From Verrucomicrobiaceae bacterium (GTDB lineage: Bacteria > Verrucomicrobiota > Verrucomicrobiia > Opitutales > Intestinicryptomonadaceae): 64,000 nucleotides of DNA. The position numbers were made by a program, and so were the translations under genes. The notes beneath the pieces were generated by a model. It worked only from the letters and a program-made list of their open reading frames with translations. It did not search any database and was not told the DNA's origin. The stretch is from the NCBI GenBank assembly GCA_015061955.1, contig SUVO01000001.1, forward strand, positions 2,233 through 66,232. The letters run 5' to 3'. This document shows positions 9,259-63,519 of the stretch, piece by piece; the stretch's first letter is position 1, and the number at the start of each line of letters is the position of its first letter.

Positions 9259-10371
9259 ATGAAAATAAAATCATTTATAATTGGGGCGTTGTCGTTTGTA
9301 GTTGCCTCAACATCGTTTGCACGCGATGTTTGGACAGCCGAAGAAGCAAATGCGTGGTTTGCAAAACAACCATATAGAGCAGGTGTGAACTATATTCCAG
9401 CATATGCAATTAACGCAATAGAAATTTGGCAGAAAGAAACATTCGATATCAAAGTTATCGAAAAGGAGTTTGCCTTAATGCAGTCGATAGGTTTCAACGC
9501 AATTCGTGTGTTCCTTAATGATTTAGTTGTAAATGACGACCCCAAAGGTTTCCTTGAACGCTTCGAGCTTTTCCTCAAGACAGCCGACAAATACGATATT
9601 GGTGTTATGGTTGTATTCTTCACAAATGGAGGTAGAGACGATGCAAAGCTTGGCAAACAACCAGAGCCAAATGGCACTCACAATTCAGGTTGGAAAAAGC
9701 AACCCTCTTATAAAATCTTGGGCGATAGATCGAAATGGGGACACTTAGAAAAATATGTAAGAACAGTTGTTGGTGCTCACGCCAAAGACCCACGCATTAT
9801 TTGTTGGGATATCTTTAATGAACCTGGGAATATTCGTAGTGAACACATCGTTGGTGGTGGAGCAGGGCTTACAAAAGAACGCATAGAGTATTTGCAAGAT
9901 TGCGTTGTAGAAGTCATAAAATTAAGTTCGCAGTGGGCTCGTTCGTACGATCCAATTCAGCCAATTACATATGGTATGTGGGCTCGCTCTCCAGAGTTCA
10001 AAAAGAAGTTCGATAAAGTTCAGTTTGAAAATAGCGACGTTGTTTCGTATCACTCGTACGGAAATCTTCGTGAACAAATACTTCGTCATAAAGAGCTTAA
10101 AAAATTCAATAAGCCGGTATTCTGTAAAGAATGGATGGGCAGAATTTTGGGTAGTACATATAATCCAATATTGCAGTATCATAAGCAAAATAAAATTTGG
10201 TCGTTTGCATTTGGTTTAGTTGCAGGTAAAATGGAAACATGGCGTCCTTGGCCACATCATGATACTCCAGAAACAAAAGGTATATGGTTCCATGATTTGT
10301 ACAAGGCAGACCACACTCCATATTGCCCAGAAGAAATCGAATACATTAAGAGAGTTTTAAAAGATAAATAA
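9259..10371 (+). CDS. secreted clan GH-A (GH5-like) glycoside hydrolase, paralog 1 of 3
   Basis: Signal peptide followed by TIM-barrel motifs: NAIRVFLND, the WDIFNEPGN (NEP) acid/base and a CKEWMG putative nucleophile. About 65-70% identical to the next two ORFs. Confidence 0.55.
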   Translation: MKIKSFIIGALSFVVASTSFARDVWTAEEANAWFAKQPYRAGVNYIPAYAINAIEIWQKETFDIKVIEKEFALMQSIGFNAIRVFLNDLVVNDDPKGFLERFELFLKTADKYDIGVMVVFFTNGGRDDAKLGKQPEPNGTHNSGWKKQPSYKILGDRSKWGHLEKYVRTVVGAHAKDPRIICWDIFNEPGNIRSEHIVGGGAGLTKERIEYLQDCVVEVIKLSSQWARSYDPIQPITYGMWARSPEFKKKFDKVQFENSDVVSYHSYGNLREQILRHKELKKFNKPVFCKEWMGRILGSTYNPILQYHKQNKIWSFAFGLVAGKMETWRPWPHHDTPETKGIWFHDLYKADHTPYCPEEIEYIKRVLKDK

Positions 10372-10388
10372 AATAGAAAGATAAATAT

Positions 10389-11507
10389 ATGAAAATAAAA
10401 TCACTTATAATAGGAGCATTATCGTTGGTGGTTGCCTCAACCACGTTTGCACGCGATGTTTGGACAGCCGAAGAAGCAAATGCATGGTTTGATAAACAGC
10501 CATATAGAGCAGGGGTGAACTATATTCCAGCATACGCAATTAACGCAATAGAAATTTGGCAGAAAGAAACTTTCAATATCGAAGTTATCGAGAAGGAATT
10601 TGCACTCTTGCAAAAAACAGGTTTCAATGCAATTCGTGTGTTCCTTAATGATTTGGTTGTACACGACGACCCTAAAGGCTTCCTAGAACGCTTTGAGCTT
10701 TTCCTCCAAAAAGCTGATAAATACAACATCGGCGTAATGGTAGTTTTCTTCACAAACGGCGGTAAAGACGACGGGAAGTTAGGTAAACAGCCAGAGCCAG
10801 ATGGCACCCACAATTCAGGTTGGAAAAAACAGCCATCGTACTCAATCTTAGGTGATAAATCTAAATGGGGCTACTTAGAATTTTATGTAAAGACTGTCAT
10901 TAAAGCCCACGCAAAAGACCCACGTATTATTTGTTGGGACATCTTCAATGAACCTGGTAATATCACTAGTGTTCATATAGCAGGCGCTGAGAAAGGTTTA
11001 ATTCAAAAGCGAATTGAATATCTTGAAGATTGTTGCTACGACCTCATCAAAGAAAGTGCAAAGTGGGCTCGTTCTCTCGATCCAATTCAGCCAATTACTT
11101 TTGGTGTTCATCGTTATGACCATACGCCATTGGGTAAAAAGCTTAACGATCTTCAATATGCCGAAAGCGATATTATTTCGTATCACTCGTACGCAAATTT
11201 GTTAATTCAAGCAAATTTTGTAAAAAAGTTGAAGAGATTTAACAAACCATTGATGTGTAAAGAATGGATGGGTCGCAATCGTGGTAGTACGATAAATCCA
11301 ATCTTGGGCTTCCATAAGAAGAATAGAATTTGGTCGTTTATGTTCGGTTTTGTTGCTGGCAAAATAGAAACGTGGCGTCCTTGGAAGTTTGATGAAAATC
11401 CTCTCTCATCTGACGTTTGGTTCCACGATTTATATCATGCCGACCACACTCCATATTGCCCAGAAGAAATTGCTTACATCAAGCGTATTTTACAAGATAA
11501 AAAATGA
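10389..11507 (+). CDS. secreted clan GH-A (GH5-like) glycoside hydrolase, paralog 2 of 3
   Basis: Same architecture as 9259-10371. The first ~75 codons are near-identical at the nucleotide level to paralog 1. Confidence 0.55.
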   Translation: MKIKSLIIGALSLVVASTTFARDVWTAEEANAWFDKQPYRAGVNYIPAYAINAIEIWQKETFNIEVIEKEFALLQKTGFNAIRVFLNDLVVHDDPKGFLERFELFLQKADKYNIGVMVVFFTNGGKDDGKLGKQPEPDGTHNSGWKKQPSYSILGDKSKWGYLEFYVKTVIKAHAKDPRIICWDIFNEPGNITSVHIAGAEKGLIQKRIEYLEDCCYDLIKESAKWARSLDPIQPITFGVHRYDHTPLGKKLNDLQYAESDIISYHSYANLLIQANFVKKLKRFNKPLMCKEWMGRNRGSTINPILGFHKKNRIWSFMFGFVAGKIETWRPWKFDENPLSSDVWFHDLYHADHTPYCPEEIAYIKRILQDKK

Positions 11508-12667
11508 AAATAAAATCATTTTTTTTAACATTCATAGCTTGTATTGTTGCAATATCCTCGTTTGCACGCGATATATGGACACCAGAACAAGCAAATGCGT
11601 GGTACGCAAAACAGCCATTTAGAGCTGGTGTAAATTACATTCCATCGTACGCAATAAATACAATCGAAGTTTGGCAGAAAGAAACATTTAAGCTTGATGT
11701 TTTTGAGAAAGAATTTGCATTGATGGAATCAATAGGCTTCAACGCAATTCGTTTGTTCCTCAATGATCTTGTAGTTAATGACGATCCTAAAGGTTTCCTT
11801 GAACGCTTCGAGCAAGTTTTGAAGGCTGCCGATAAGCATGGGATTGGTGTTATGGTCGTATTTTTTACGAACGGAGGTAGAACAGATGGTACGCTTGGAA
11901 AACAACCTGAACCAGATGGAACGCACAATTCAGGTTGGCGTAGACAGCCTGCATATTCTATTCTGCGAGATAAATCGAAGTGGGGACATCTCGAGTTTTA
12001 TGTTAAAACGGTTGTTGGTGCGTATGCAAAAGACCCACGTATTATTTGTTGGGATGTTTTCAATGAACCAGGTAATATAAAAAGCGATCATATTGTAGGA
12101 GGTGGAAAAGGTTTGACAGAAGCAGATATGGAACATCTGCGTCGTTGTAGCCTCGATTTGGTCAGAGAAAGTGCCAAATGGACGCTTTCGTTTGATCCAA
12201 TTCAACCTATTACGTATTGTTTGTGGTCTCGTACACCGAAGGGCTTTGAGAAAGTTCAGATTGAAAATAGCGATATTCTTTCGTTCCATTCCTATGGTGG
12301 CTTAGGTCAACAAGTTCAACGTTATAAAAAACTGAAGAAGCATAATAGACCTGTTTTATGTACGGAATGGTTGGGGCGTTCTACAGGTAGTACGTTTAAT
12401 CCGATTTTAGAATTCCATAAAGACAATAATATATGGTCGTTTGCTTTTGGCTTTGTTGCTGGAAAAATGGAAACGTGGCGTAATTGGCCAGCTATGGACG
12501 ATTCGGAAATTAGAAGCATATGGTTCCACGATTTGTATCGTGCCGACCATACTCCATATTGCCCAGAAGAAATTGCTTACATAAAGCGAATTTTGAAGGG
12601 CGAAAACGCATGCAAAACTCCTTCTAAAAAGAAAAATAAACCACGCAAAGTCGGTAAATACTTCTAA
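11504..12667 (+). CDS. secreted clan GH-A (GH5-like) glycoside hydrolase, paralog 3 of 3, with a basic C-terminal tail
   Basis: Same motifs (WDVFNEPGN, CTEWLGR). Its start overlaps the paralog 2 stop in an ATGA junction. It ends in a Lys/Arg-rich tail (KTPSKKKNKPRKVGKYF). Confidence 0.55.
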   Translation: MKIKSFFLTFIACIVAISSFARDIWTPEQANAWYAKQPFRAGVNYIPSYAINTIEVWQKETFKLDVFEKEFALMESIGFNAIRLFLNDLVVNDDPKGFLERFEQVLKAADKHGIGVMVVFFTNGGRTDGTLGKQPEPDGTHNSGWRRQPAYSILRDKSKWGHLEFYVKTVVGAYAKDPRIICWDVFNEPGNIKSDHIVGGGKGLTEADMEHLRRCSLDLVRESAKWTLSFDPIQPITYCLWSRTPKGFEKVQIENSDILSFHSYGGLGQQVQRYKKLKKHNRPVLCTEWLGRSTGSTFNPILEFHKDNNIWSFAFGFVAGKMETWRNWPAMDDSEIRSIWFHDLYRADHTPYCPEEIAYIKRILKGENACKTPSKKKNKPRKVGKYF

Positions 12668-12794: not shown

Positions 12795-13976
12795 ATGAAA
12801 AAAATTCTTGCATTAGTTTGTGCAACAGCACTATTTACATCGGCATTCGCTTTAAATGTCAGCGAAGATAAAACTATTGTTAATGGTACAGATACCATCA
12901 ACTTTACAGCACCAAATGTTACCCTTACTATTACTGGTAAATTTGATAAGTTGTGGTATTCGCCACGTGCAAATTTTGGTGATGATTATGTATATACCGA
13001 AGGTGACAAAGTTACAGTAAAGTTGGAATATGGCGCATCTCTTGTATTGGATGCTTCTCAAGGGGGCTTGTTTGGTGGTGATTCAGTTTCTACAAGTAAA
13101 GTTGATATGCATATTACTGGTGGTGGTACAATATCTACAACTCTCGAATCTATTACAACTACAAATAATAGAGGGAAACTCTACTTAGACGCATTTACCG
13201 ATTTTACTAATGCCACATATAACATTGGGTCTGCAACACAACCCACAAATCTTACATTATCAAATGCGTTGGTAGTTAACAAACTTACACTTTCAAAAGG
13301 TTCAGTTTTAACAATGTCTTCCGATGATGATTCTTCGGCAGATATTTCTGTTTTAGGTTCTTCATCAACAATCAATGGGAATTTTGTTCAAACTGCAGGT
13401 AGATACGAGGCATTAAATACAACAACAGTTGTAACTGGTACTCTTGATTTGGCTGTTTCAAAAGGTTTTGTATCACGTTGGTTAACTATTGGTAATGGTT
13501 CTACAATTATTATTCGTGCCAATAATGCAATCATGCAGAGCGAAACAGCATATCGTGTTTTTGGTATGTCTAAAGATGCAGTATCAACATTGAAACTTTA
13601 TGCCGATCAACAGTTCGCTGATTTGTGGTTTGATAATGCTAATACTACTGGAACTTTGAATGCTTATACAAATGGCAATGCGCTTACTTTTACTGGTATA
13701 AATTCAACAGGTACTCTCAATATTTTTATTGAAGAAGATTTTTCGTGGGAAAATGATAAAATCCACTTTACAAATGCAACAGTAGAGAGAGTTGTATCAA
13801 TCTTGGGTACAATTACCATTGGTGATACTGTTATTGATAAATCGTTTTGGGATATTGTAAGCGACGGTAATAAAGGTGTATATGTAAACTTGACTCAAGT
13901 TCCAGAGCCAGCCGAATGGGCTCTCATCTTCGGAGCGATAGCACTCGGCTTCATCGCCTATCGTCGCAGAAAGTAA
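12795..13976 (+). CDS. PEP-CTERM sorting-domain surface protein (Thr/Ser/Asn-rich)
   Basis: Signal peptide, then a low-complexity T/S/N/G-rich body likely forming a beta-helix or beta-solenoid. The C-terminus is VPEPAEW-ALIFGAIALGFIAY-RRRK: a canonical PEP motif, TM helix and basic cluster. Confidence 0.7.
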   Translation: MKKILALVCATALFTSAFALNVSEDKTIVNGTDTINFTAPNVTLTITGKFDKLWYSPRANFGDDYVYTEGDKVTVKLEYGASLVLDASQGGLFGGDSVSTSKVDMHITGGGTISTTLESITTTNNRGKLYLDAFTDFTNATYNIGSATQPTNLTLSNALVVNKLTLSKGSVLTMSSDDDSSADISVLGSSSTINGNFVQTAGRYEALNTTTVVTGTLDLAVSKGFVSRWLTIGNGSTIIIRANNAIMQSETAYRVFGMSKDAVSTLKLYADQQFADLWFDNANTTGTLNAYTNGNALTFTGINSTGTLNIFIEEDFSWENDKIHFTNATVERVVSILGTITIGDTVIDKSFWDIVSDGNKGVYVNLTQVPEPAEWALIFGAIALGFIAYRRRK

Positions 13977-14760
13977 AGCAAAACCGTGAGGAGCTTGCTT
14001 TAGTGGTGGTGGTTTTTACTAATAATGAATAAATGCGTTTCTTTAGAAACGCATTTTTTTTATAAATATAACCACCACCAAAGCAAGCAGTTTGATTATT
14101 ATTCGGTTTTATTTCGGACTTACGTACATAGTACGCTACGCCTCATAAAACGCGAATTCTAATGCAAACCTCACGATTTTGTACTTGCAACACGAACCTT
14201 ATTCTAAATCTTAAAACGTGCGAGAGCGCGTTTTCTTTGATGATGAGTTTTAATTTACACTATAAGGAACTTCGATGAAGTGCCTTTTTTTATTAAATAA
14301 ACTCATCAAAGAAAACACTTTACCCTCCATTTTGGTTTTAGCTTCGACTGCAGTGCGTAGCACAGCAACGCTCGCTAAAACGCAAAAGCATCGGGACAAT
14401 CTCGCACGTTTAAAACGTGCGAGGACGGTGTCTCGATTGCGAAAAATATTTATATAGAGATAAGAGCATTCCATTTGGAATGCTCTTTTTGTATAAGATC
14501 GCAATCGAGGCACCTCACAGCTTATGACGCACTTTTGCATCGACTCACGACCAAAGGTCGCTCACGCTCGCAAAAGCGACGTCCTAAGCACGTGCCTCGC
14601 ACGTTTTACTTCTTGCAACCTATGTTGGTTCTAATCTTATGGCTGAATTTTTCTAATAAAAAGTAGAGCCACATGCGAAGCATTGGCGACGGTGCCCAAC
14701 ATATAAAAACACGTTTTACTTCTTGTAACCTATGTTGGTTCTAATGTGTACTATTTTGTA
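13977..14760. repeat. intergenic mosaic of dispersed repeat modules (A, B, A', C, C-partial) at a convergent junction
   Basis: Module A (14213-14316), module B (14323-14411), module A' (14412-14510), module C (14529-14635) and a partial C (14709-14745). Each recurs at 23509-24032 and/or 55283-55810. Confidence 0.7.
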
Positions 14761-14867
14761 AGAGTATAGTGAAGTAATTTTCATTAATTTATAACCATAC
14801 AAATGCTCTATAAACAAAAAAATGCGTATAAAACGCATTTTTTTGGTAAGTTATATAAGTTATATGT

Positions 14868-18557: not shown

Positions 18558-21500
18558 TTGAAAGGACTGTTTATGAAAAAAATCTTTTTTACATTATTTG
18601 TTGCATTTGCTACATCGCTTTTTGCAACACAAAGTAATGACATAAAAAGCATTGCTGATAAATTATATTCAAAGAAAGACACGTTTTTAGATACGGTCCT
18701 TCAAACCCGTTCAAATTATGCGTCGTGGTTGAAAGCGCAACCCGACGCAAACGCAAATTTGAAATTTGGCGATTGGTATGTATCGCAAGCGTTGGAACGT
18801 TATCGTAAAAATGCTTTAAAGTTTGCTAATCCACAAGAAAATGGTATCGATTTAAAAGCCATTTATGGCAGAGAACCTCTTTGGCGTAAGTATGATATCA
18901 AAGATGGAACATTATTCCCATTGTGTTCTACAAATCATCGTTTGTTGCAAACTTGTATAGCTTATGTGGCTCGTGAAATTACTGCCGATGCCGATACTAA
19001 ATTTTCTTTTACAGTTGGTGCTAGAACAAGTAATGTTATAGATGTATTGCTAAATGGTAAATTTTTGAAAACTATCAAAACTGGCGATGCACAATCGTTT
19101 GAAGTCCCACTAAAAAAGGGTAAAAATATTCTTTCGTTTACTATAAAATATTTGGGTAGAATGAATGAAGATGCATTCTACTTTGTGCCATATACTGATC
19201 CAGCAGTAGAACTTACTGCAAAATTGAGAAAAGATTTCCCAACTTTTTATAACGCCTTAACTTCAATGCGTTATTATTATGCCGAAACTCCAGCTTTGTT
19301 GCCTTTCGATTGGTTTGTTGCCAAAGATAATTCGGTTTCGCACAAAGATGTAATTCAGGGTATGATTGAACATTCGCTATTTTCGGCTGGTAAGTTGGAA
19401 GAACGTTTCAAGAAAATTAAAGACGATACATCTGAAAATGCGTCGGTTGAACGTATAAAGCTTTTGGCAGATGGATTTGCTATCTTGTGTGTAGAGCGCG
19501 AGTTTGGTTATTGCATTAAGAATGTAAGATCTGCAATGGAAGATATCAAAAAAACTTACCCAGATTACGATAAAGACGGAAAACTTTTTGCAGAGCTTGC
19601 CGATTGGGAAAAACGTATGCCAGCTCTCTACAATAGCGTTCTTGAAGATGTAAAATTAAATAAACAATCGTCTTTTGCCGAAGCTAAAAAGTTTAATTCT
19701 TTTGCAACAAAGGCATTGCTTGCAAATCCACTTTTAAAGCAGTATCCACAGTGGGTTATGATTAAGCGTGATAAGGGTTCAAGTCGTTTAGGATTGCCAC
19801 AAAATTGGCAAGGTAATTCTACCTTAGCATGTAATCCTTGGTCTTCTAATAATAAGAGACAACCGAAAGTTTGTGCAACTTATAAAGATGAAATTTACAA
19901 GTTCGATATCACAAAACCACAAGAAAAACAGTTGTTGTTTAAGCCTGCAAAAAACAACATCATTTGCGATTTAGATATATCATTCGATGGTAAGAAAATT
20001 TTGTATTCTACCTTAGACGATAAAATGTATTTCCGCATGGACGAACTCGATACCACATCGGGCAAGACAAAAACTATAACGCCAACAATGCACGAGAAAA
20101 TAGATTATTACGATGGTATTTATTTGCCAGATGATCGCATTTTGTTCTGTTCAACTGCGTGTTGGGTGGGTGTTCCTTGTGTGTCGGGTACAGACTCGGT
20201 TGCAAACCTTTATGTAATGGATCCAAATGCAGGTGATGAAAAAGCTGTTGATGAATCTATACGTCAGCTCACTTTCGAGCAAGATGCCGACTGGATGCCT
20301 GTGTTGATGGAAAATGGCAGAATTATGTATACTCGTTGGGAGTACGTTGACAACTCGCACTATTTCTCGCGTATTCTAATGCATATGAATCCTGATGGCA
20401 CTGCACAATCGTCGTTGTATGGTTCTGTTAGTTATTGGCCAAATTCGCTCTTTTACGCACGTCAAATTCCGAACGACCCAAATAAATTTGTTGGTATTGT
20501 ATCGGGGCACCATGGCGTAGCTCGCACAGGTGAGCTTCATTTGTTCGACATTTCTAAAGGAACAAAAGAAGAACAGGGCAGAGTACATCAGTATCCTTCG
20601 CATGGTCGTAAATATGTTGCAGAAACTAAAGACGAACTTGTGCGTGGTAAATTCCCTCAGATTATCCATCCGTATCCTCTTTCAGAAAAATATATTGTTG
20701 CATCGGTACGTCATCACTTGGCAAATCGTATTGGTTTTGCAGTTTGTTTGATTGATAAATTTGACAACATAATAACATTGCAATCGTTTGACGATAATCA
20801 TCATGCTTTCGAGCCATTGCCATTGCAAGCTCGCCAAAAGCCTGTTGAAATTGCCGATAAAACAAATCCAGATTTAGATTATGGCCATGTGTTCCTTAAC
20901 GATATTTATCAGGGAGATGGCTTGAAAGATGTACCTCGCGGAACTGTAAAATCTTTGAGAATTTTGGAATACCATTATGCTTATCGCGATATGGGTTCGC
21001 ATGCTGTAATTGGTAATGAAGGCTCGTGGGACGTAAAACGTATTCATGGTACTGTTCCAGTTCTTGAAGATGGTTCGGCTATGTTCAAAGTTCCAGCAAA
21101 TCGTCCACTTGCACTTCAACCTTTAGACAAAGATGGTAAGGCATTAGCTTTAATGCGTACATGGTTTACTGTAATGCCTGGTGAAGTTCAAAGTTGTGTA
21201 GGTTGCCACGAAGGACAAGGTATGTCGCCAACTTCAAAGCCTGCATTGGCTTCTCGTAAGGCTCCAACAAAAATTAAACCATTTGTTGCTGGTGTGCGTG
21301 GTTATTCGTTCCATAGAGATGTTCAACCTGTTCTCGATAAATATTGCGTAGGTTGTCATAATGGTGGAAATGAAAAATTACCAAACTTTAAGCGTGGCGT
21401 ACGGGGTTATGCACACTTCCCTAAAGCATACTTAGACTTGGCTAAATTTGTGCGTCGCTCTGGTCCAGAATGTAATCAGAATATGCTTACACCTATGGAA

Positions 21501-22811
21501 TTTAATGCCGACACAAGCGAGCTTATTCATATTTTGAAAAAAGGTCATAAAGGAGTAAAGCTTGATGATCAATCTATGAAAATCCTCATTACATGGATTG
21601 ATATGAACGTCCCATGTTTTGGTACTTGGAAAGAAATAAAAGCAGATATTCCACACAATGGCGATGTAATGCGCAGAAAGTACCTTGCTAAATATGCAAA
21701 TCGTCATGAAGACCAAGATGCAATTACATACGATGGTGGTGTTCAAGAATTTGTTGCACCTGCTCAAGCTAAGAAGCATCCACAGAAAAACCTTAAGGCT
21801 GATAATTTCCCATTCGATAGTGCTACAGCTAAGAAAATGATTGAAAACACAGCTGTAAAAGCTGAAGGCTTTACCGGATTATTTGGTGCTAAGAAAAAAT
21901 TACCATCCGAAATTGAATGCGATGTTGATGGCGTGAAAATGCGTTTTGTACTCGTGCCAGCTGGTAGTTTTGTAATGGGTTCAAATCGTGGTTATTACGA
22001 TGAAGGTCCAGCAAAGATTGTACGTGTTGAAAAACCTTTCTATATGAGTCAGTTTGAAGTGTCGAATTTGCAGTACGCTAAGTTCGATGCCTCGCACAAC
22101 TCTGGATATCACGATAGACAATGGAAAGACCATGTAAATCGTGGCTACATTGCAAACAATCCAAATCAACCAGTTGTTCGTGTAAACTGGAATCAGGCAA
22201 ACGCATATGCAAGATGGTTGTCAGAAAAGGTTGGTGTTAAAGTTTCGTTACCTACCGAAAAACAATGGGAATGGGCTGCACGTGCTGGTACATCGGGCGA
22301 CTTCTGGTTTGGTAAACTCGGTAAAAATTATGGCGATTGCGAAAATTTAGCCGACTTTACTATTCGCAATTTTGCTGTTAATGGGGTAAATCCTAAACCT
22401 CGTGCCGACGAAAGCCCTCTAAACGCTTATACTCCACGCGACGACTTTGCTAACGACGGTCAGCTGGTAGGTTGTGATGTAGGTATGTTTAAACCTAACG
22501 CTTTCGGTTTGTACGATATGCTTGGTAATGTTTCAGAATGGACTGCCGACGATTTCAGCGAAACTCTTTTCGGCAAAAAACTTCAAGACAAAAAAGCAGT
22601 TCGCGGTGGTTCGTGGCGCGATAGAGCTAAACGCAGTAGAGTTACAATGCGTCGCGACTATTACTCTTGGCAGAAAGTTTACAATGTAGGTATTCGCCTC
22701 GTTATTGACGATGTTGAAACTGCAGCAAAAACTTTCGAAACTGCTAAAAAACTCCCAGAATATATCGAACGCGACATTTCTGTGAAAGTCGATAACGTTC
22801 CACACGATTAA
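18558..22811 (+). CDS. large secreted multidomain protein with PSCyt-like CxxCH motifs and a C-terminal FGE-sulfatase-like domain
   Basis: 1417 aa with a signal peptide. Two CxxCH motifs (CVGCHEG at nt 21195-21209; PVLDKYCVGCHNGG at nt 21345-21359) sit in a Planctomycete-cytochrome-c-like context. The C-terminal ~290 aa match the FGE-sulfatase fold (NWNQANAYARWL, YDMLGNVSEWT, RGGSWRD). TTG start at 18558 with an aggagagg RBS; the ATG at 18573 is an alternative. Confidence 0.6.
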   Translation: MKGLFMKKIFFTLFVAFATSLFATQSNDIKSIADKLYSKKDTFLDTVLQTRSNYASWLKAQPDANANLKFGDWYVSQALERYRKNALKFANPQENGIDLKAIYGREPLWRKYDIKDGTLFPLCSTNHRLLQTCIAYVAREITADADTKFSFTVGARTSNVIDVLLNGKFLKTIKTGDAQSFEVPLKKGKNILSFTIKYLGRMNEDAFYFVPYTDPAVELTAKLRKDFPTFYNALTSMRYYYAETPALLPFDWFVAKDNSVSHKDVIQGMIEHSLFSAGKLEERFKKIKDDTSENASVERIKLLADGFAILCVEREFGYCIKNVRSAMEDIKKTYPDYDKDGKLFAELADWEKRMPALYNSVLEDVKLNKQSSFAEAKKFNSFATKALLANPLLKQYPQWVMIKRDKGSSRLGLPQNWQGNSTLACNPWSSNNKRQPKVCATYKDEIYKFDITKPQEKQLLFKPAKNNIICDLDISFDGKKILYSTLDDKMYFRMDELDTTSGKTKTITPTMHEKIDYYDGIYLPDDRILFCSTACWVGVPCVSGTDSVANLYVMDPNAGDEKAVDESIRQLTFEQDADWMPVLMENGRIMYTRWEYVDNSHYFSRILMHMNPDGTAQSSLYGSVSYWPNSLFYARQIPNDPNKFVGIVSGHHGVARTGELHLFDISKGTKEEQGRVHQYPSHGRKYVAETKDELVRGKFPQIIHPYPLSEKYIVASVRHHLANRIGFAVCLIDKFDNIITLQSFDDNHHAFEPLPLQARQKPVEIADKTNPDLDYGHVFLNDIYQGDGLKDVPRGTVKSLRILEYHYAYRDMGSHAVIGNEGSWDVKRIHGTVPVLEDGSAMFKVPANRPLALQPLDKDGKALALMRTWFTVMPGEVQSCVGCHEGQGMSPTSKPALASRKAPTKIKPFVAGVRGYSFHRDVQPVLDKYCVGCHNGGNEKLPNFKRGVRGYAHFPKAYLDLAKFVRRSGPECNQNMLTPMEFNADTSELIHILKKGHKGVKLDDQSMKILITWIDMNVPCFGTWKEIKADIPHNGDVMRRKYLAKYANRHEDQDAITYDGGVQEFVAPAQAKKHPQKNLKADNFPFDSATAKKMIENTAVKAEGFTGLFGAKKKLPSEIECDVDGVKMRFVLVPAGSFVMGSNRGYYDEGPAKIVRVEKPFYMSQFEVSNLQYAKFDASHNSGYHDRQWKDHVNRGYIANNPNQPVVRVNWNQANAYARWLSEKVGVKVSLPTEKQWEWAARAGTSGDFWFGKLGKNYGDCENLADFTIRNFAVNGVNPKPRADESPLNAYTPRDDFANDGQLVGCDVGMFKPNAFGLYDMLGNVSEWTADDFSETLFGKKLQDKKAVRGGSWRDRAKRSRVTMRRDYYSWQKVYNVGIRLVIDDVETAAKTFETAKKLPEYIERDISVKVDNVPHD

Positions 22812-22835: not shown

Positions 22836-23510
22836 ATGAAAAAATTACTTGCAACTATTATATCAATCGTAACACTATTGTTTCTTGGTGCATGTTCTTC
22901 ATGCCCAAAAGGCGAATGTTGCTTTAAATCTCAACCAAAATTAACAAAAGATATGTTTTACAAAGATGGTAAATTCGATCAAGATGCTGCCAAGCAAGCA
23001 TACTTCGATATGATGGAAAAACTCGGTTATCCAATCAGCGATAATCTTCGCAAAAATATGTGGGTAACAGACTTCGCTTTAGGCGATTTTCCTAACGTAG
23101 GTATGGCTGGTATATTTTGGGCTCATGAAAACAAAAATGGCGTTTTTGGTCACGAAATTATCTTATTGCCTAACCAAATGCTCGTTGAACACTGGCACGT
23201 TGCCGGCTTAGGTTTGCCTGCTAAAAACGAATGCTGGCAGGCTCGTGCAGGTAAAACTTACTGCTTTGGGGAAGAGGGCGAAGATGCTTCTAAATATCCA
23301 AACGTAAAAGTTCCAGAAAGCCAGAAGAAATTTATTACTGTAAATAAAGTTGCATGTGCTGATGCTAAAGAAGGTAATGTTGTATGGCTCAATCGCTTAG
23401 AAGCACGTCATTATCAGATTGCTGGTCCAGAAGGTGCAGTTGTAACTGAATATGGTGCATTCCACAGCAACGACAACAATCGCTTCACCAACCCAAAGGT
23501 CGGCTTCTAA
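22836..23510 (+). CDS. hypothetical lipoprotein (224 aa)
   Basis: Lipobox LGACSS after the signal peptide. A His-rich block (HENKNGVFGHEIILLPNQMLVEHWH) hints at a metal-binding or cupin-like fold, but no family could be confirmed. Confidence 0.35.
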   Translation: MKKLLATIISIVTLLFLGACSSCPKGECCFKSQPKLTKDMFYKDGKFDQDAAKQAYFDMMEKLGYPISDNLRKNMWVTDFALGDFPNVGMAGIFWAHENKNGVFGHEIILLPNQMLVEHWHVAGLGLPAKNECWQARAGKTYCFGEEGEDASKYPNVKVPESQKKFITVNKVACADAKEGNVVWLNRLEARHYQIAGPEGAVVTEYGAFHSNDNNRFTNPKVGF

Positions 23511-24032
23511 AACGTGCGAGAGCGCGTTTTCTTTGATGATGAGTTTTTATTTACACTATAAGGCACTTCGTTGAAGTGCCTTTTTTTATTAAATAAACTC
23601 ATCAAAGAAAACGCTTTCGGCTGTTATTTGGTTTCGTATCGCCTCACGTACATAGTACGCTACGGCTCACAAAACACAAATTCCAGCTCGAATCTCGCAC
23701 GTTTTACTTCTTCCAACACATGTCGGTTCTAAACTGATTTTATTTAACCACATTCTCTTTGATGATGAGTTTTTATTTACACTATAAGGCACTTTGATGA
23801 AGTGCCTTTTTTATTAAATAAACTCATCAAATAAAACGCTTTGCCCTCCATTTTGGTTTTAGCTTCGACTGCAGTGCATAGCACAGCAATGCTCGCTAAA
23901 ACGCAAAAGCATCGGGACAATCTCGCACGTTTTTTTATTTCCGTTCCTAAGTTTATCCTAATCCGATTTAGTTAGGCAAAGAAGCTATTGCGAAGCAATC
24001 TTCGCCACTTCTCAACATACAAAAACACGTTT
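23509..24032. repeat. intergenic mosaic of repeat modules (A, E, C-tail, A, B, F) at a convergent junction
   Basis: Module A at 23509-23613 and again at 23753-23838. Module B at 23844-23931. Module F at 23932-24032, shared with 55684-55775. The E and C-tail segments at 23614-23735 are shared with 14120-14165 and 14600-14635. Confidence 0.7.
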
Positions 24033-24290
24033 TTAAGAGAGGAGTTTTATTCGCACATCTGCACAATTTGAAATTTCAACAAGCTTATCGCGAGAGGTTT
24101 CGCCAGTACATATTTCTATATCGTTGCGAGATATTCCCAATTTTTTAGCTAAAAATTTAATGAGTTCGGTATTCGCTTTTCCGTCCATTGCTTGAGCGGC
24201 AATCTTTATTTTTATCGCATCACCGTACTCGCCAACGCACTCGCTTTTGGGGGCGTTTGGAACTACTCGAATTTTTATACGTTCAGCCAT
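24033..24290 (-). CDS. DUF167/YggU-family protein (UPF0235)
   Basis: 85 aa. The blocks VVPNAPKSE...DGKAN and LIKFLAKKLGISR, and the overall length, are characteristic of YggU. Confidence 0.65.
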   Translation of the reverse strand: MAERIKIRVVPNAPKSECVGEYGDAIKIKIAAQAMDGKANTELIKFLAKKLGISRNDIEICTGETSRDKLVEISNCADVRIKLLS

Positions 24291-40590: not shown

Positions 40591-41001
40591 TTACATTTCC
40601 ATAAAAATTAAAACAGCAAATGCAACACAAACTGCAGCTACAGCAAAATCTATAGCCATCGACAACGCACTCGACGATTCTTCTTGAACAGCTACTGGTG
40701 CCGATGCAACAGGGCTTACTCGTGGAGCTGCTACAACTGGCTTGGGAGCGTTAGGCAAAACTGTCTTAGGTGCTTCAGGCAAGATTGTTTTGGGAGCCTC
40801 AGGAAGTATTGTCTTAGGTGCTTCTGGTAAAATTGTTTTAGGCGCCTCAGGCAAGATTGTCTTAGGAGCTTCTGGAAGCACGGTTTTAGGTGCCTCAGGC
40901 AAAACTGTTTTAGGAGCTTCTGGAAGCACGGTTTTAGGCGCCTCAGGCAAAACTGTTTTAGGAGCCTCTGGTAAAATTGGGGTTGGGTTTTGATCTGACA
41001 T
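40591..41001 (-). CDS. tail-anchored proline-rich tandem-repeat protein (LPEAPKT[VI] x9 plus one degenerate unit)
   Basis: The N-terminus is MSDQNPTPI, followed by nine LPEAPKT[VI] units, one LPNAPKPV unit and a C-terminal hydrophobic helix (AIDFAVAAVCVAFAVLIFMEM). It is encoded by a 24-nt period array on the minus strand at about 40745-40985. Confidence 0.6.
   Translation of the reverse strand: MSDQNPTPILPEAPKTVLPEAPKTVLPEAPKTVLPEAPKTVLPEAPKTILPEAPKTILPEAPKTILPEAPKTILPEAPKTVLPNAPKPVVAAPRVSPVASAPVAVQEESSSALSMAIDFAVAAVCVAFAVLIFMEM
40745..40985 (-). repeat. 24-bp coding tandem repeat array, about 10 units
   Basis: The units differ at synonymous positions, yet the encoded peptide repeat is nearly perfect. 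Confidence 0.8.
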
Positions 41002-48134: not shown

Positions 48135-48150
48135 TTTTTTTATAAAAAAT

Positions 48151-48185
48151 AAAAGCAGTGTAAGAAAAAATACACTGCTTTTTTG
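48151..48185. terminator. hairpin terminator between guaB (+) and holA (-)
   Basis: aagcagtgta, loop agaaaaaa, tacactgctt, then TTTTT. A-rich on the other side, so possibly bidirectional. Confidence 0.55.
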
Positions 48186-48200
48186 TTTGTAACAAATATA

Positions 48201-52768: not shown

Positions 52769-53015
52769 AAGAATTTTTGTTTTATAGTTTATCGAAATGA
52801 ATTAAAAAACTTTAAAAACTCAAACAAAGGTTATTTTATATGTTGTTTTTTTGTGGGTTTTGTTTGAAACGATATGTTTTGCATGTACTTATGAAAGAAA
52901 AAAAATTATTTAACTAAAAAAAAATGTTCGATATTTTTTTTATTTGTGTAAGACTTATTGTGAGAAAATTTTTATCTTTCGTTTTAGAAAGAACATTTAC
53001 AAACAAAAAGTAGAT

Positions 53016-55283
53016 ATGATTACATCAATAATAACAACAATGTCTGAATCGGCTATGATGTCGGCAACAGTTAATCCAGCGTTTTGGTTAGTTCCAATCG
53101 CTTCAGTAGTAGCGTTAGTTTTTGCGCTATTATTTTATAAAGGAATGAAGTCGGAAGAAGAAGGAACCGACATCATGAAAAAAATTGCCTTACACGTACG
53201 TCAAGGTGCATTGGCATATTTAAAACAACAATACAAAATAGTTGCTTGTGTATTTGTTGCTTTATTTCTCTTCTTTGCTTTTTTGGCATATGGCTTAGGT
53301 GTGCAGAACGAATGGGTACCGTTTGCTTTTATAACTGGTGGCTTTTTCTCTGGTTTGGCTGGGTTCTTTGGTATGAAAACTGCAACCTATGCATCGAATC
53401 GTGCTGCATATGCCGCTAAGAATTCCCTCGACCACGGATTGCGTGTTGCGTTTCGTTCTGGTGCAGTTATGGGGCTTGTCGTGGTGGGCTTAGCTTTGCT
53501 CGACATTTCTATTTGGTTTGTAATTCTAAACTATTTTATTGAAGATGCAAATCCAGCACATAAGATGATTATCATAACCACTACAATGCTCACTTTTGGT
53601 ATGGGGGCTAGTTTGCAAGCTTTGTTTGCTCGTGTTGGTGGTGGTATTTTCACAAAGGCTGCCGACGTAGGTGCAGACCTTGTTGGAAAAGTTGAAGCTG
53701 GAATCCCAGAAGACGATCCTCGCAATCCTGCTACTATTGCCGACAACGTAGGCGACAACGTAGGCGACGTTGCTGGTATGGGCGCTGACTTGTACGAATC
53801 GTACTGTGGCTCTATCTTAGCAACAGCTGCATTAGGTGCTGCTGCTTATATGACTAACGTTGATGTACAGATGAAAGCTGTGTTAGCGCCTATGATTATT
53901 GGTGCTATTGGTGTTGTGCTTTCTATTGTTGGTATTTACTTTGTACGCGTAAAACCTGGTGCCGACAGCAAACAACTTTTAGGTGCTTTAGGTAAGGGTG
54001 TAAATGCTAGTTCTATTTTAATTGCCATTGTTTCTGCTTTGATTTTATGGCAACTCGGTATGCCAAACTGGCTTGGCAACTGGGCTTCTATTATTACAGG
54101 TTTGATAACTGGTATTTTCATTGGCAAAATTACCGAGTACTATACTTCAGAAGCTTACTCGCCAACTCGTGGTATTGCCGAACAAGCAAAAACTGGTCCA
54201 GCAACTGTAATTATTGCTGGTATGGGTACTGGTATGATTTCTACATTCTATCCAGTTATGGCTATTGTTGTTGGTACTGCATTAGCATTTATTTTCTCAG
54301 CAGGTGGCGATTTCTCAAATATGTCGGAAGGTCTTTATGGCATAGGTATTGCTGCTGTTGGTATGTTATCAACTTTAGGCATTACTTTGGCTACGGATGC
54401 TTACGGCCCAATTGCTGACAATGCTGGTGGGAATGCAGAAATGTCGGGCTTGGGAAAAGAAGTTCGTCGTCGCACCGATATGCTCGATTCTCTCGGTAAT
54501 ACTACTGCCGCAACTGGCAAGGGTTTTGCTATTGGGTCGGCAGCATTGACTGCTCTTGCTCTATTGGCTTCGTATGTTGAAGAGCTTCGCATTGGTTTAG
54601 TTCGCATAAAGGGCAATGCAAACATTTCTGAATACGCTTCTTCTATCTTAGAAAAATTTGAGAAAGTTGGTGGTGTTCAAAACGCTTCACTACTCGATTT
54701 TATGAACATTTACGGCGTAAACTTGATGAATCCAAAAGTTCTTTTGGGTATGTTCATTGGTTCGATGATGTCGTTCCTTTTCTGTGGTCTTACAATGAAT
54801 GCTGTCGGACGCGCTGCCAACCAAATGGTAAACGAAGTTCGTCGTCAATTCCGTGAAAATCTCGGCATTATGCAAGGTACTTCTGATCCAGACTATGCTC
54901 GTTGTGTAGAAATTTCTACCAAGGCTGCTCAAAAAGAAATGCTTTTCCCTTCGTTATTAGCTGTTGCAACTCCTGTTATTACTGGATTAGTTTTTGGCGT
55001 AACTGGTGTTTTAGGACTCCTCGGTGGTGCTTTAGCTTCGGGGTTTGTTTTAGCTATATTTATGGCAAACAGTGGTGGTGCTTGGGACAACGCCAAGAAA
55101 TACATTGAACAAGACAATTTTGGAGGGAAAGGCTCTGAAGCCCACAAAGCTGCCGTTATTGGCGACACTGTTGGCGATCCATTCAAAGACACATCTGGTC
55201 CATCTTTGAACATTCTCATAAAGCTTATGAGCATGGTAGCCATTGTTATGGCAGGTGTAACGGTATCATTCTCTCTCCTTTAA
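53016..55283 (+). CDS. hppA: membrane-bound H+/Na+-translocating pyrophosphatase
   Basis: Signature motifs [20 protein letters not shown] and [17 protein letters not shown], and about 16 TM helices. The start is set at MITSII (53016). Confidence 0.9.
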
Positions 55284-55810
55284 AAAAACGTGTGTGGACG
55301 CACCACGAGGGCAATATTTTTTATTATAATGATGAAAGGCAATTCTTCGGAATTGCCTTTTTTTGTATTAGCTTGCCCTCGTGGTGCTTGTAGCTAAAAA
55401 CGCACTTTTGCATCGACTCACGACCACAGGTCGCTCACGCTCGCAAAAGCACGTTTTTAGCAGACACCACACACGTTTTTTGTTTCTGTTTCTTACGTTG
55501 ATTCTAATCTGAGGGCAATATTTTTTATTATAATGATGAAAGGCAATTCTTAGAATTGCCTTTTTTTGTATTTAAATTCGCAAAGTGGTGCTTGTAGCTA
55601 AAAACGCACTTTTGTATCGACTCACGACCAAAGGTCGCTCACGCTCGCAAAAGCAACGTTCTAAGCACATGTCTCTCACGTTTTTTATTTCCGTTTCTAA
55701 GTTGGTTCTAATTTGATATAGTTAGACAAAGAAGCTATTGCAAAGCAATCTTCGCCATTTCCCAACATATAATAAAAAGTTTGCCCTCGTGGTGCTTGTA
55801 GCTAAAAATG
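55283..55810. repeat. intergenic mosaic of repeat modules (D, C, D, C, F, D-tail) at a convergent junction
   Basis: Module D at 55300-55400 and 55511-55606. Module C at 55402-55508 and 55607-55715. Module F at 55716-55775. D-tail at 55779-55808. A 14-bp inverted repeat aaaaacgtgtgtgg / ccacacacgttttt at 55285-55298 and 55470-55483 brackets the first D+C unit. Confidence 0.7.
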
Positions 55811-55818
55811 AACAATTT

Positions 55819-61317: not shown

Positions 61318-61372
61318 TTTACACAAAAAAATGCTGAATATTATTCAGCATTTTTTTTATGTGTTAATATTT

Positions 61373-63085
61373 TTAAGCTTGTTGATTATTTGTATTTTCA
61401 ACATTTCTACGAACACGAGGGATTTTATCGTAGAACTTGCCAGCTCTGTCGATAATATTGAACAGGTTTTTAGCAACCTTGCGAATCGATTCTAACAATT
61501 CGAGGTACAAAATACCAATTTCAGGGCGACATGTACCCGAATTTACACGCGAAACGTGTTCGGCTTCAACATTGTTTAAAGTTTCGACAATAGAAGCTCT
61601 TATTTTTAGAGCATTTTTAGATGCCTCTTGCGACTTTGTTTCTAATAGAACTATAGCACATTGTGCAAGCGATTCTAACTTTTGATGTAAATCGTTATAT
61701 TCTGTTTCTGCATTTGGACTGAAAGTATACTTATTTTTCTTTATACGATTCATAATATCGCGTATACCCTCAGCTAAGTCGCCAATGCGTTCGGCATCGT
61801 TAGTGCAGTGTAGGAGCATTGGAATTTGGTCGGCTTCTTCCGATGTTAAATCGCACTGCATCAGTTTTGCAAGATATTGGGTGATGTCTTTTTGACGTGT
61901 ATCTACATCGTTTTCACTTGTATCAAGACTCTTGAGGAATTCTTGATTTTTTTCATCGTTTTTATTATATATGTTGAGCGTGCAATCTGCCATTTTCCAC
62001 GATTTTTTCAACATTTTACGCAACGCAGACGCAGCTTGTGCCAATGCAATAGGTGGTGTCGACAACAAGCTTGGTTCAAGACGCTGATAACGAACGCGTT
62101 CGTTACCAATTGGGATAACTTTTTCGCATATTTTTGCAAATGTAGGCACAAATGCTATTAGTACTATTGTTGTACATACGTTGAATAATGTGTGGGCATT
62201 TGCAATCTGGCGAGGCAAATCGCCACCCTTTGAAAACCATTCAACTGCTTTAAAAAATATTGGTTCTCCATCTATCGTGAACCAGAATGTGCAAACTATA
62301 ATAAGAACACCCATTAAATTAAAAAGAGTGTGTGCCAAAGCTGTTTGTTTTGCAATTCTGTTTGCTGGTATTGCCGCAAGCTGAGCAGTTATTGTTGTGC
62401 CGATGTTTGAACCTAATACTAAAGCAACTGCTGTATAAATATCTACCAAACCACTTGCACCTAAGGCAACCACAATACCCGAACAAGCCGATGAACTTTG
62501 AATTACAAACGTTGCTATCATACCTATTGCAATAGCTCCGAAAAGCTCAATAGGTGGAATAACACCATTTACTGGAGCACACTTGAATGTTTGAAAAGCT
62601 TGTTTGAAAGCTGGATCTTCTGCCAGAGTTTTAAGTTCGTTGCTCATCATTTCCATACCCAAGAACAAGAAGCCCAAACCTATGATAGTTGCACTCCAGT
62701 TGCTTATAGTACGCTTTGGAATAAAGCTCAAGACCAACCCCAATATAATAGATGGCATAATAATCCAACTAATATCGAATGCTACTAATTGAGCAGTTAT
62801 TGTAGTACCTATATTAGCACCAAAAATAATGCTGATTGCCTGAACTAAACTGAGCAAACCAGCATTAACAAAACCAATAACCATAACTGTACTTGCACTC
62901 GAAGATTGTATAACTGCCGTAACAGTTGCCCCCGATACAACCCCGACAAATCTGTTTGCCGAGAATAAGCGGAGAATTGTACGCATACGTTCTCCCGCTA
63001 CATGATGAAGCCCATCGCTCATAAGCTTCATTCCGAATATGAATATGGCTAAACCACCAAATACTTGTAATAATAGTTCTGTCAT
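61373..63085 (-). CDS. Na+/phosphate cotransporter (NptA/YjbB family) with a C-terminal PhoU-like domain
   Basis: An N-terminal Na_Pi_cotrans repeat pair (GANIGTT x2) and a C-terminal PhoU-like helical domain. Confidence 0.75.
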   Translation of the reverse strand: MTELLLQVFGGLAIFIFGMKLMSDGLHHVAGERMRTILRLFSANRFVGVVSGATVTAVIQSSSASTVMVIGFVNAGLLSLVQAISIIFGANIGTTITAQLVAFDISWIIMPSIILGLVLSFIPKRTISNWSATIIGLGFLFLGMEMMSNELKTLAEDPAFKQAFQTFKCAPVNGVIPPIELFGAIAIGMIATFVIQSSSACSGIVVALGASGLVDIYTAVALVLGSNIGTTITAQLAAIPANRIAKQTALAHTLFNLMGVLIIVCTFWFTIDGEPIFFKAVEWFSKGGDLPRQIANAHTLFNVCTTIVLIAFVPTFAKICEKVIPIGNERVRYQRLEPSLLSTPPIALAQAASALRKMLKKSWKMADCTLNIYNKNDEKNQEFLKSLDTSENDVDTRQKDITQYLAKLMQCDLTSEEADQIPMLLHCTNDAERIGDLAEGIRDIMNRIKKNKYTFSPNAETEYNDLHQKLESLAQCAIVLLETKSQEASKNALKIRASIVETLNNVEAEHVSRVNSGTCRPEIGILYLELLESIRKVAKNLFNIIDRAGKFYDKIPRVRRNVENTNNQQA

Positions 63086-63237: not shown

Positions 63238-63519
63238 TCAATTTTCAACATTTCTACGAACACGAGGGATTTTATCGTAGAACTTGCCAGCTCTGTCGAT
63301 AATATTGAACAGGTTTTTAGCAACCTTGCGAATCGATTCTAACAATTCGAGGTACAAAATACCAATTTCAGGGCGACATGTACCCGAATTTACACGCGAA
63401 ACGTGTTCGGCTTCAACATTGTTTATTTTTTCAGTTGCTATAAAAATATAGGCAACAATCAGAATTGCCGCAGAAAATGTAACGGCATTCATTTTTACAT
63501 ATTCTAAAAAAAAATCCAT
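63238..63519 (-). CDS. chimeric small ORF: new TM N-terminus fused to a duplicated C-terminal 61 aa of the Na/Pi cotransporter
   Basis: nt 63241-63425 are 100% identical to 61394-61578. The encoded NNVEAEHVSRV...RVRRNVEN is identical to the cotransporter C-terminus. The N-terminal 32 aa (MDFFLEYVKMNAVTFSAAILIVAYIFIATEKI) are unique and hydrophobic. Confidence 0.4.
   Translation of the reverse strand: MDFFLEYVKMNAVTFSAAILIVAYIFIATEKINNVEAEHVSRVNSGTCRPEIGILYLELLESIRKVAKNLFNIIDRAGKFYDKIPRVRRNVEN

Follow-up and report, generated by a model that had tools for sequence, protein, structure and literature searches.

What is the long palindrome that begins within the stop codon of a lipoprotein-like gene at position 23509, and why does it recur elsewhere in the same genome? 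The DNA analyzed here, referred to as the window, comprises 64,000 nucleotides (64 kb) of contig SUVO01000001.1 (assembly GCA_015061955.1, Verrucomicrobiaceae bacterium) from an uncultured gut member of the Opitutales of low GC content (about 37-38%). The original prediction described a sequence of ~100 bp, module A, as an imperfect palindrome centred on a terminator hairpin, and placed it at 14213-14316, 23509-23613 and, in a 5'-truncated form, 23753-23838. The sequence is found at all three sites, and a repeat finder groups them into one family (14212-14338, 23508-23634 at 91% and 23734-23860 at 65%). The outer arms (gcgttttcttt/aaagaaaacgc and gatgagttt/aaactcatc) and the inner arms (aaggcacttc/gaagtgcctt) are complementary as described. 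Folded as DNA, the segment 23522-23613 reaches -25.8 kcal/mol against -6.5 +/- 2.1 for shuffled sequences (z = -9.1), none of 200 shuffles being as good, and as RNA it reaches -35.5 kcal/mol (z = -7.6). At its centre lies a canonical terminator, the hairpin 23560-23582 followed by a T-run, which scores on the + strand only, and the copy at 23509 does start within the TAA (23508-23510) of the open reading frame (ORF) 22836-23510. Two details required revision. The interval 23509-23613 contains the palindrome but fuses it with a separate conserved 13-nt element (23509-23521), the palindrome proper occupying 14226-14316 and 23522-23613, beside the 5'-truncated copy 23753-23838; and the paired region, put at ~40 bp, is not one continuous stem but has ~30 bp in three helices, split by a 3-nt bulge and AT-rich internal loops. 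The starting observation on module A is correct, far beyond chance. Module A is, however, the left arm of a larger unit of ~200 nt and not the whole entity, and the 13-nt element aaaacgtgcgaga pairs at 23693-23705, outside it.

The unit measures ~197 nt, or ~230 nt with its tail, and is built in the order closing repeat, arm A, arm B, closing repeat, tail C. Its ends are formed by a 13-nt inverted repeat, AAAACGTGCGAGR...YCTCGCACGTTTT, whose two copies (left and right terminal inverted repeats, TIR-L and TIR-R) lie ~175 nt apart and form a 13-bp closing stem. Arm A has an outer stem of 15-20 bp, then AT-rich internal loops and, at its tip, an intrinsic-terminator hairpin with a T-run. Arm B, of ~80 nt, has three helices around a nearly invariant internal loop and is present in the window in three types, B1-B3. 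The right closing repeat is usually followed by tail C, ACTTCTTGCAACCTATGTTGGTTCTAAT or a variant of it. The array behind the lipoprotein-like gene (23509-24032) contains two such units, U4 (A1+B1+C) and U5 (5'-truncated A1 + B2), then C2-D2, and is organized as follows:

23508-23510, + strand: stop codon (TAA) that ends ORF 22836-23510; the closing repeat shares its last two A's as its own first two bases
23509-23521, + strand: U4 TIR-L, AAAACGTGCGAGA, partner at 23693-23705
23522-23613, + strand: U4 arm A, type A1, with outer stems, 3-nt bulge and AT-rich loops, terminator hairpin 23560-23582 and T-run
23614-23692, + strand: U4 arm B, type B1, a three-helix hairpin with the conserved internal loop; on the - strand its tip reads GTAG followed by CGTAC-TAT-GTACG
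23693-23705, + strand: U4 TIR-R, TCTCGCACGTTTT, recognized by motif match and fold
23706-23738, + strand: tail module C, ACTTCTTCCAACACATGTCGGTTCTAAACTGAT, which recurs behind TIR-R of other units
23753-23933, + strand: U5, without TIR-L: truncated A1 23753-23838, B2 23839-23920, TIR-R 23921-23933
23934-24032, + strand: C2 and D2; the terminal CACGTTTTT touches the TAA (24033-24035) of the convergent DUF167 gene, giving TAA-AAACGTG on the - strand

Including truncated copies, the window contains seven units, U1-U7, in three arrays. With up to two mismatches allowed, the closing-repeat 13-mer has 11 matches in the window against 2.7 expected, a number reached by none of 100 shuffles, and eight of the 11 border repeat units. 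A common Y-shape, with predicted energies from -70 to -107 kcal/mol, is found in all eight complete units, taken from the window and from three fetched loci and representing three organisms (the labels L008-L048 used below denote other assemblies or contigs fetched for comparison with the window). For U4 the fold reaches -82.6 kcal/mol when the + strand is folded (z = -11.7), compared with -93.4 kcal/mol for the - strand (z = -13.6). All 12 A modules, which belong to about nine sequence types, combine an outer stem with a terminator in the same way; 11 of them have z-scores between -5.4 and -11.8, and the twelfth, from L017, has the same fold at -42.3 kcal/mol. An alignment of whole units with MAFFT misplaces arm A, and this arm was assessed from individual folds and orthologous pairs.

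The unit is strongly constrained. An orthologous copy of U6, the unit behind the H+-pyrophosphatase gene, is present at the syntenic pyrophosphatase orthologue (96% identity) in L043, and comparison of the window with this locus gave the following values:

pyrophosphatase gene: 86% identity
four-fold degenerate sites of the pyrophosphatase gene: 54% identity
other intergenic regions: 66-75% identity
U6 stop codon and left closing repeat: 16/18
U6 left arm of A: 15/17
U6 centre of A: 38/56
U6 right arm of A: 14/16
U6 module B: 79/80

By these figures the unit is conserved far above the neutral level, and the outer arms, the closing stem and B are maintained, B not only in structure but also in sequence. 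The two copies of arm A differ by three compensated pairs and zero uncompensated stem changes: the outer stem CACGAGGG/CCCTCGTG of the window reads CACGTGGG/CCCACGTG in L043, and the tip hairpin GGCAATTC/GAATTGCC reads GGCGTTTC/GAAACGCC. In this comparison the central hairpin of arm A evolves, by compensatory changes, like ordinary terminators of the same genomes. At the lipoprotein-like gene, the orthologous unit in L048 has co-varied in the closing stem (GAAAGCGCGAGG/CCTCGCGCTTTC), in both helices of arm A and in the tip hairpin of B (CGTAC/GTACG to CGGGC/GCCCG). CGTGCGAG, CGTGTGTGG and GCGCGAGG are variants of the closing stem, each of which pairs with a partner of its own. Nine B modules were compared, their sequences amounting to no more than three or four independent types: 94.8% of cells pair, compared with 31-42% when the 3' partners are slid; both sides change in 14 of 22 pairs, and none of 500 shuffles reaches the observed values. 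All helices are kept by compensatory change.

Orthologous gene ends in relatives indicate what preceded the unit. The lipoprotein orthologues in L037/38 (83% amino acid identity), L039/40 (74%) and L041/42 (64%) have the stop codon at the same position, with the same end residues in L037, and are followed by a plain short terminator lacking the closing repeat, the outer stem and B; the pyrophosphatase orthologues in L044 and L045 (89% identity) likewise have plain terminators. At these gene ends the unit stands in place of the plain terminator of the relatives. The comparison of orthologous loci that the original prediction proposed as a check reveals both presence and absence of the element, with three related species carrying a plain terminator at the same stop of the lipoprotein gene, and module A is not an ordinary conserved terminator. 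Insertion inside a gene with a stop codon supplied by the element was rejected for both genes, the stop position being the same in relatives without the unit. At the lipoprotein and pyrophosphatase genes the unit has been acquired, relative to plain terminators, though long ago: the lipoprotein orthologue in L048, with 86% protein identity, carries the co-varied unit 7 nt past its TAG stop. No closing repeat and no B module were found in ~100 kb sampled from five relatives, compared with seven units in the 64 kb of the window, so the family is patchy.

The lipoprotein-like gene itself has a 64%-identical homologue in Intestinicryptomonas porci, and the window pyrophosphatase is ~85% identical to that of Coraliomargarita sp. 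CAG:312. It may be added that the 224-aa lipoprotein-like protein (22836-23510), whose homologues are named D-lyxose ketol-isomerase by some sources, is preceded by the gene of a large protein with hydrazine-synthase-alpha-like and FGE-sulfatase domains (18558-22811); the gene pair is syntenic in four of five related species and absent in I. porci (L041/42).

The second recurrent property of the unit is its contact with stop codons, the first unit of an array adjoining the stop of the gene before it. The distance between the stop and the left closing repeat is 0-7 nt at eight independent gene ends:

contacts 1-3: U1; U4, with its orthologous copy in L048; U6, with its orthologous copy in L043
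contacts 4-6: L012; L013; L028
contact 7: the convergent DUF167 gene at 24033, whose - strand TAA is followed by AAACGTG and module D
contact 8: the citrate synthase gene in L012/L017, with a variant of the closing repeat and an A5 arm behind its TAA

In L011 the repeat lies within the last codons of an ORF and the stop codon follows inside the element. The A-run of 4-7 nt at the left end is always preceded by T, so that TAA and the A-tract of the closing stem run together, and TA stands behind the right end in U3, U4, L011 and L012. The TAA itself is uninformative, as 37 of 47 window genes end with it. The stop-adjacent bias is nevertheless very unlikely to have arisen by chance (roughly 2e-5 for eight of nine at a generous 20% per site, by our own rough estimate). 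The original prediction saw in the position of the U4 copy a sign of targeted insertion immediately after a stop codon. The placement is borne out by these gene ends; the insertion part fares less well, since target-site duplications did not emerge, the polymorphisms seen look like recombination between copies rather than clean insertion or excision, the unit at the lipoprotein gene is old, and the strong constraint on module B is not predicted for a recent selfish insertion.

The remaining units of the window are arranged in two further arrays, 13980-14750 with U1 (A3+B1), U2 (A1+B2) and U3 (A2+B3) followed by C1-D-C1, and 55285-55818 with U6 (A4+B3) and U7 (5'-truncated A4 + B3) followed by C2-D2 and a fragment:

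13980-14212, + strand: U1, 3 nt past the TAA of ORF 12795-13976; degenerate TIR-L 13980-13992, A3 13993-14088, B1 14089-14167, TIR-R 14168-14180, tail C 14181-14212
14213-14412, + strand: U2; TIR-L, A1 14226-14316, B2 14317-14399, TIR-R
14412-14750, + strand: U3 and C1-D-C1; A2 14425-14514, B3 14515-14594, TIR-R 14595-14607, C1 14608-14640, D 14641-14717, second C1 14718-14750
55285-55509, + strand: U6, on the TAA of the H+-pyrophosphatase gene 52944-55283; TIR-L variant AAAACGTGTGTGG, A4 55299-55388, B3 55389-55466, TIR-R 55467-55479, then the tail
55510-55818, + strand: U7 and following modules; truncated A4, B3 55593-55671, TIR-R 55672-55684, then C2 and D2
up to 55818, + strand: fragment behind U7 with the right arm of A4 and the start of B3, reaching the stop of the convergent gene 55819-58212
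14816-14846, 48140-48195 and 61320-61370: plain bidirectional terminators (A-tract, hairpin, T-tract) at other gene ends

A types and B types are joined in differing combinations across the units. The junction of U2 and U3 is a perfect 25-bp palindrome, TCTCGCACGTTTAAAACGTGCGAGG, with a short central AT spacer. All three arrays of the window sit between convergent genes. Two other convergent gene pairs of the window have one short bidirectional terminator only, so arrays are not needed for convergent termination. A fourth array of the same genome, in L046 (positions 1-340), ~2.2 kb upstream of the window start, consists of the end of B3, TIR-R and C1, then a 5'-truncated A3, B1, TIR-R and C; it lies before the start of a + strand gene, and the arrays are therefore not confined to convergent gene pairs. 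The protein encoded by 12795-13976, upstream of U1, matches no Pfam family; its end, VPEPAEWALIFGAIALGFIAYRRRK, is a sorting signal of PEP-CTERM-like type.

Beyond this genome, the exact closing-repeat pair was found in one of 185,579 species genomes, a Candidatus Merdousia metagenome-assembled genome (Opitutales, Intestinicryptomonadaceae). Its locus, L011 (GC 53%), has the same closing repeat; the arm A differs but is fully paired and contains a terminator of its own, and a module of B1 type and a tail similar to C are also present. A scan of a metagenome collection with the pair gave two true matches and three unrelated long palindromes, L014-L016; a scan of a viral collection gave no matches. 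In the metagenome contig L013 (GC 52%) a unit with a fourth B type stands directly behind the TAA of a - strand gene, together with a decayed copy, and the same B type is present in L011 as a second, reversed copy. The composite U3-C1-D-C1 recurs in L012 with 96% identity over 337 nt to window 14412-14745, directly behind the TAA of a different gene, and L028 and L029 carry a U4-U5 array behind yet another gene, whose TAA overlaps the repeat. Overall, copies at unlinked loci are 91-96% identical.

Arrays also differ between closely related assemblies. Where the window carries two units, L008 carries a single one (A1+B2), and the difference of 226 bp corresponds to recombination between the two A1 copies; an indel at the locus is thus seen between strain-level assemblies. 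L017 and L021 have deletions between B1 copies and a different downstream gene. Compared with window 23509-24033, the array of L028/L029 follows a Cys/Met PLP enzyme gene instead of the lipoprotein gene, and compared with window 13977-14867, that of L017/L012 is joined to a citrate synthase gene instead of DUF4886. The breakpoints between assemblies fall inside modules, and many metagenome contigs of the lineage stop inside arrays.

Taken together, these data lead us to favour, tentatively and with somewhat less than even confidence, a lineage-restricted family of structured extragenic mosaic repeats of the repetitive extragenic palindrome (REP)/bacterial interspersed mosaic element (BIME) and MITE (miniature inverted-repeat transposable element) kind, confined to gut Opitutales near Intestinicryptomonas/Merdousia and serving as a terminator of host genes. 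The family is apparently undescribed. As in REP/BIME elements, extragenic hairpins occur in many copies and in mosaic clusters; as in MITEs, the unit is short, non-coding (the ORFs within units are short and spurious) and bordered by terminal inverted repeats, with copies at unrelated loci and variation in presence (four arrays in one genome, absent in five relatives). In a possible scenario, transcription of the upstream gene would end at the T-run within arm A, while the fold would be recognized by a trans-acting factor, so that the parts not belonging to the terminator are kept. The likeliest factor would be an enzyme that acts on folded single strands, either a transposase or a recombinase, for instance of the REP-associated tyrosine transposase (RAYT) or terminal inverted repeat-associated tyrosine transposase (TIRYT) type; alternatively, an RNase or an RNA-binding protein could play this role. 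Spread and array growth may have proceeded through transposition, recombination between copies, or both.

The unit shares with REP/BIME elements and with the REPIN-RAYT system (REPINs being REP doublets forming hairpins) its extragenic, strongly structured and multi-copy character and the mosaic clusters of hairpin types with conserved linkers. Further common traits are the frequent location just past stop codons and between convergent genes, the tolerance of G.T pairs on one strand, and long vertical persistence. In Escherichia coli, REP elements near stop codons reportedly influence translation and the decay of mRNA. Read on the - strand, the B1 tip hairpin has GTAG in front of it in U1, U4, L011 and L048, despite a changing stem sequence, a feature resembling the 5' GTAG of GTAG-tagged REPs. 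Such REPs are reported to be abundant in Opitutus terrae, of the same order, and composites of a REP with an unrelated stem-loop, as well as TIR repeats linked to tyrosine transposases, have been described (PMC3733652). In contrast to REPs, which are hairpins of 20-40 nt, the unit is a ~200-nt three-way junction closed by a 13-bp stem, with an intrinsic terminator built into one arm; unlike in GTAG-tagged REPs, the tag is lost in B2 and B3 and no RAYT gene is linked to the units, none (Y1 transposase) being found within the 64-kb window. No sequence similarity connects the unit with described REP families. Its membership in the REP/BIME-REPIN or Correia-type families is not established, owing to the lack of a cognate transposase and of a target duplication, the loss of the tag in some B types, and the position of tail C outside the inverted repeat.

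Several observations weigh against a mobile repeat family. Pfam scans of all sizeable window ORFs gave housekeeping genes only, and neither the window nor any fetched unit-bearing locus contains a transposase, integrase or reverse transcriptase gene. Neither a target-site duplication nor a clean pair of empty and filled sites with both flanks conserved was found; T or TA stands at some junctions, which are blurred by the A-run of 4-7 nt and by the conserved module C behind the right repeat. A conserved module outside the right closing repeat also differs from a simple transposon bounded by terminal inverted repeats. The GTAG tag is only 4 nt long and reads GTGAG in B3 and GTTG in B2. The best-pairing strand of B is C-rich and, if GC skew is read in the usual way, does not serve as template of the lagging strand. 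The array rearrangements, seen between short-read metagenome assemblies, may be either strain recombination or assembler chimeras. Finally, 99% conservation of B between species with near-saturated synonymous sites exceeds what a selfish repeat needs and fits a function for the host.

It is this last point that gives the main rival its weight, namely that the unit is a conserved functional RNA, either a structure of the 3' untranslated region or read-through transcript or an RNA of the opposite strand (closing repeat, B', A', closing repeat), with B as a protein-binding domain and the long stems as a processing or insulation device between transcription units. The two readings are not exclusive, and this one is rated clearly less probable than the repeat family. 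Terminator-like sites were found at 23560-23582, 23786-23808, 14031-14056 and 14462-14487, and only the tip of arm A qualifies. As this terminator acts on the strand of the upstream gene, the terminated transcript would lack the right arm of A, B and the right closing repeat; with the terminator within A on the + strand, the complete Y fold would form only in single-stranded DNA, read-through RNA or opposite-strand RNA. Consistent with an RNA read from the opposite side, the - strand fold is the more stable in nine of ten units, G.U pairs in the minimum-energy folds number 34 on the - strand and 14 on the + strand, and within B 13 cells are G.U on the - strand (A.C on the +) compared with one in the reverse case. 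The invariant internal loop of B is purine-rich on the - strand (GAGCGUGA/GAGUCGAU) and could form tandem G.A pairs. Such strand bias, in G.U pairs as in the GTAG tag, comes from few independent events and is no more than suggestive. The covariation in all helices and the 79/80 identity of B beside 54% at four-fold sites are likewise expected of a functional RNA. Against it, no sigma-70-like promoter was detected on either strand of the arrays, for which reason a small RNA gene with its own promoter is also unsupported, and Rfam gave no match at the gathering threshold in the whole window (at E<=10, two arrays yielded generic hairpin noise only). Moreover, the units stand in tandem, some are truncated at the 5' end, and A and B types are shuffled, as is typical of repeats but not of RNA genes; the distribution is patchy among close relatives, and near-identical composites stand behind unrelated genes.

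A stop-codon-docking element of a new kind is a further, rather unlikely possibility, to which slightly less weight is given than to the functional RNA. It would be either a mobile element aimed at ORF ends and bringing its own terminator, or a conserved RNA or DNA device of Y shape with which the host closes and insulates transcription units, module B, read on the opposite strand, binding a protein; either way it would have its own dedicated protein partner.

More doubtful than these, though not negligible, is a classical MITE moved by a DDE cut-and-paste transposase encoded elsewhere, with TA or TAA as its target. The element begins with AAAACG, and insertion in the TA of a stop codon would regenerate TAA and so be tolerated and retained. 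The 13-bp terminal inverted repeats, the small size without ORF, the copies at unlinked loci, the patchiness among relatives, the T always found before the left A-run and the TA behind the right end of four units agree with this explanation. It is contradicted by the A-run of varying length, by which the stop-codon junction is not fixed, by L048 with its TAG stop and 7-nt gap to the closing repeat, and by module C outside the right repeat. AT-rich intergenic DNA offers many TA/TAA sites, yet at eight gene ends the unit lies no more than 7 nt from the stop; inert copies are not expected to be strongly conserved or to undergo compensatory evolution in place at orthologous loci; and no parent insertion sequence, that is, no autonomous element with the same inverted repeats, was seen in the window or the fetched loci. 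The nearest known counterparts are the Correia elements of Neisseria (Correia repeat enclosed elements, CREE, or Neisseria miniature insertion sequences, NEMIS), which are likewise short and free of ORFs, with terminal inverted repeats and sites at gene ends. They are co-transcribed, can terminate transcription, form long stems that are RNase III substrates and are variably present among strains. Their inverted repeats are of 26 bp, with a TA duplication and a single hairpin, whereas the present unit shows no duplication and has a conserved tail beyond the repeat; its interior, unlike theirs, consists of two independently varying arms, and its orthologous copies are conserved far above neutral.

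Two other readings fail their defining tests. The less improbable of them, which is nonetheless given very little credence, takes the closing repeats as half-sites of a tyrosine recombinase and the units as integron cassettes or attC-like folded sites starting at the preceding stop. The perfect palindrome at the U2/U3 junction with its AT spacer invites this comparison, and attC sites reportedly share the definition by fold, the short inverted ends AAC...GTT around a core variable in sequence and conserved in structure, the overlap with the stop codon and the strand-specific features. However, the ends AAAAAAC... and GTTTTAC/GTTTAAA do not fit the consensus RYYYAAC/GTTRRRY, the unit of ~197 nt is too long (attC, 57-141 nt), no integrase gene is present in the window (Pfam, all window ORFs), and the preceding genes are syntenic housekeeping genes, not cassettes. 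Still more improbable is an orphan retron-like msr-msd RNA gene on the - strand, with the closing repeats as a1/a2, B' as msr and A' as the long msd hairpin: the order and sizes of the parts on this strand resemble a retron non-coding RNA, yet no reverse transcriptase gene lies beside any unit or in the window, the copies form tandem arrays with truncated members, and the 5' repeat is not followed by a conserved AGC branch context.

An ordinary intrinsic terminator with flanks palindromic by chance or by local inverted duplication is refuted. The GC-rich hairpin and T-run at the tip of arm A do resemble the terminators of the same genomes, both in sequence (AAGGCA...TGCCTTTTTT) and in their compensatory evolution, and the closing stem has the A-tract and T-tract layout of bidirectional terminators. 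Against this reading stand the fold z-scores of -5 to -12 in 11 of 12 A modules, the copies at several loci, the plain terminators at orthologous gene ends, the conservation across genera of the closing repeat and B, both situated outside the palindrome, and ~150 further nt (outer arms, B, closing repeat, tail) that are conserved and repeated without being needed for termination.

Some narrower candidates were also discarded. A hammerhead-like reading of CTTTGATGATGAG...GAAA in A1 was dropped as the motif is absent from the other A types, and a small toxin peptide because its 11-codon ORF exists in A1 only. The 13-mer is not dispersed through the window, which removed an uptake sequence from consideration. 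A tRNA-derived attachment site as the origin of module C is excluded by the absence of tRNA and tmRNA genes, none having been found in a search of the window. A protein-database search for further copies through the spurious ORFs found none.

Should the family be as described, it would present a route by which bacteria acquire terminators, a structured repeat replacing a plain terminator exactly at the stop codon. It joins repeat-like behaviour (arrays, truncation, shuffling, patchiness) with conservation far above neutral, a persistence of the kind discussed for REPIN-type elements. Module B, with one of 80 positions changed against 46% of the synonymous sites of the neighbouring gene, is a compact experimental target. 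If the stop-codon-docking reading were true, a dedicated protein partner would be implied. The arrays appear to break assemblies and may mark differences in gene order between strains. The host lineage consists of uncultured gut Verrucomicrobia for which, within the searches made here, no repeat or RNA families are described.

It is also worth recording three features of the window lying outside the arrays. Three tandem paralogues of ~370-390 aa with 66-88% DNA identity occupy 9259-12667, and one of them matches the PF00150 cellulase family. On the - strand, a 93-aa ORF at 63238-63519 duplicates in its C-terminal 64 aa the C-terminus of the adjacent Na/Pi-cotransporter/PhoU gene (61373-63085), as a partial gene duplication of 192 nt with 98% identity (61394-61585 and 63241-63432). 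Also on the - strand, a 136-aa ORF at 40591-41001 contains ten tandem 8-aa repeats, LPEAPKT(V/I), with a DNA period of 24 nt, followed by a hydrophobic C-terminal tail.

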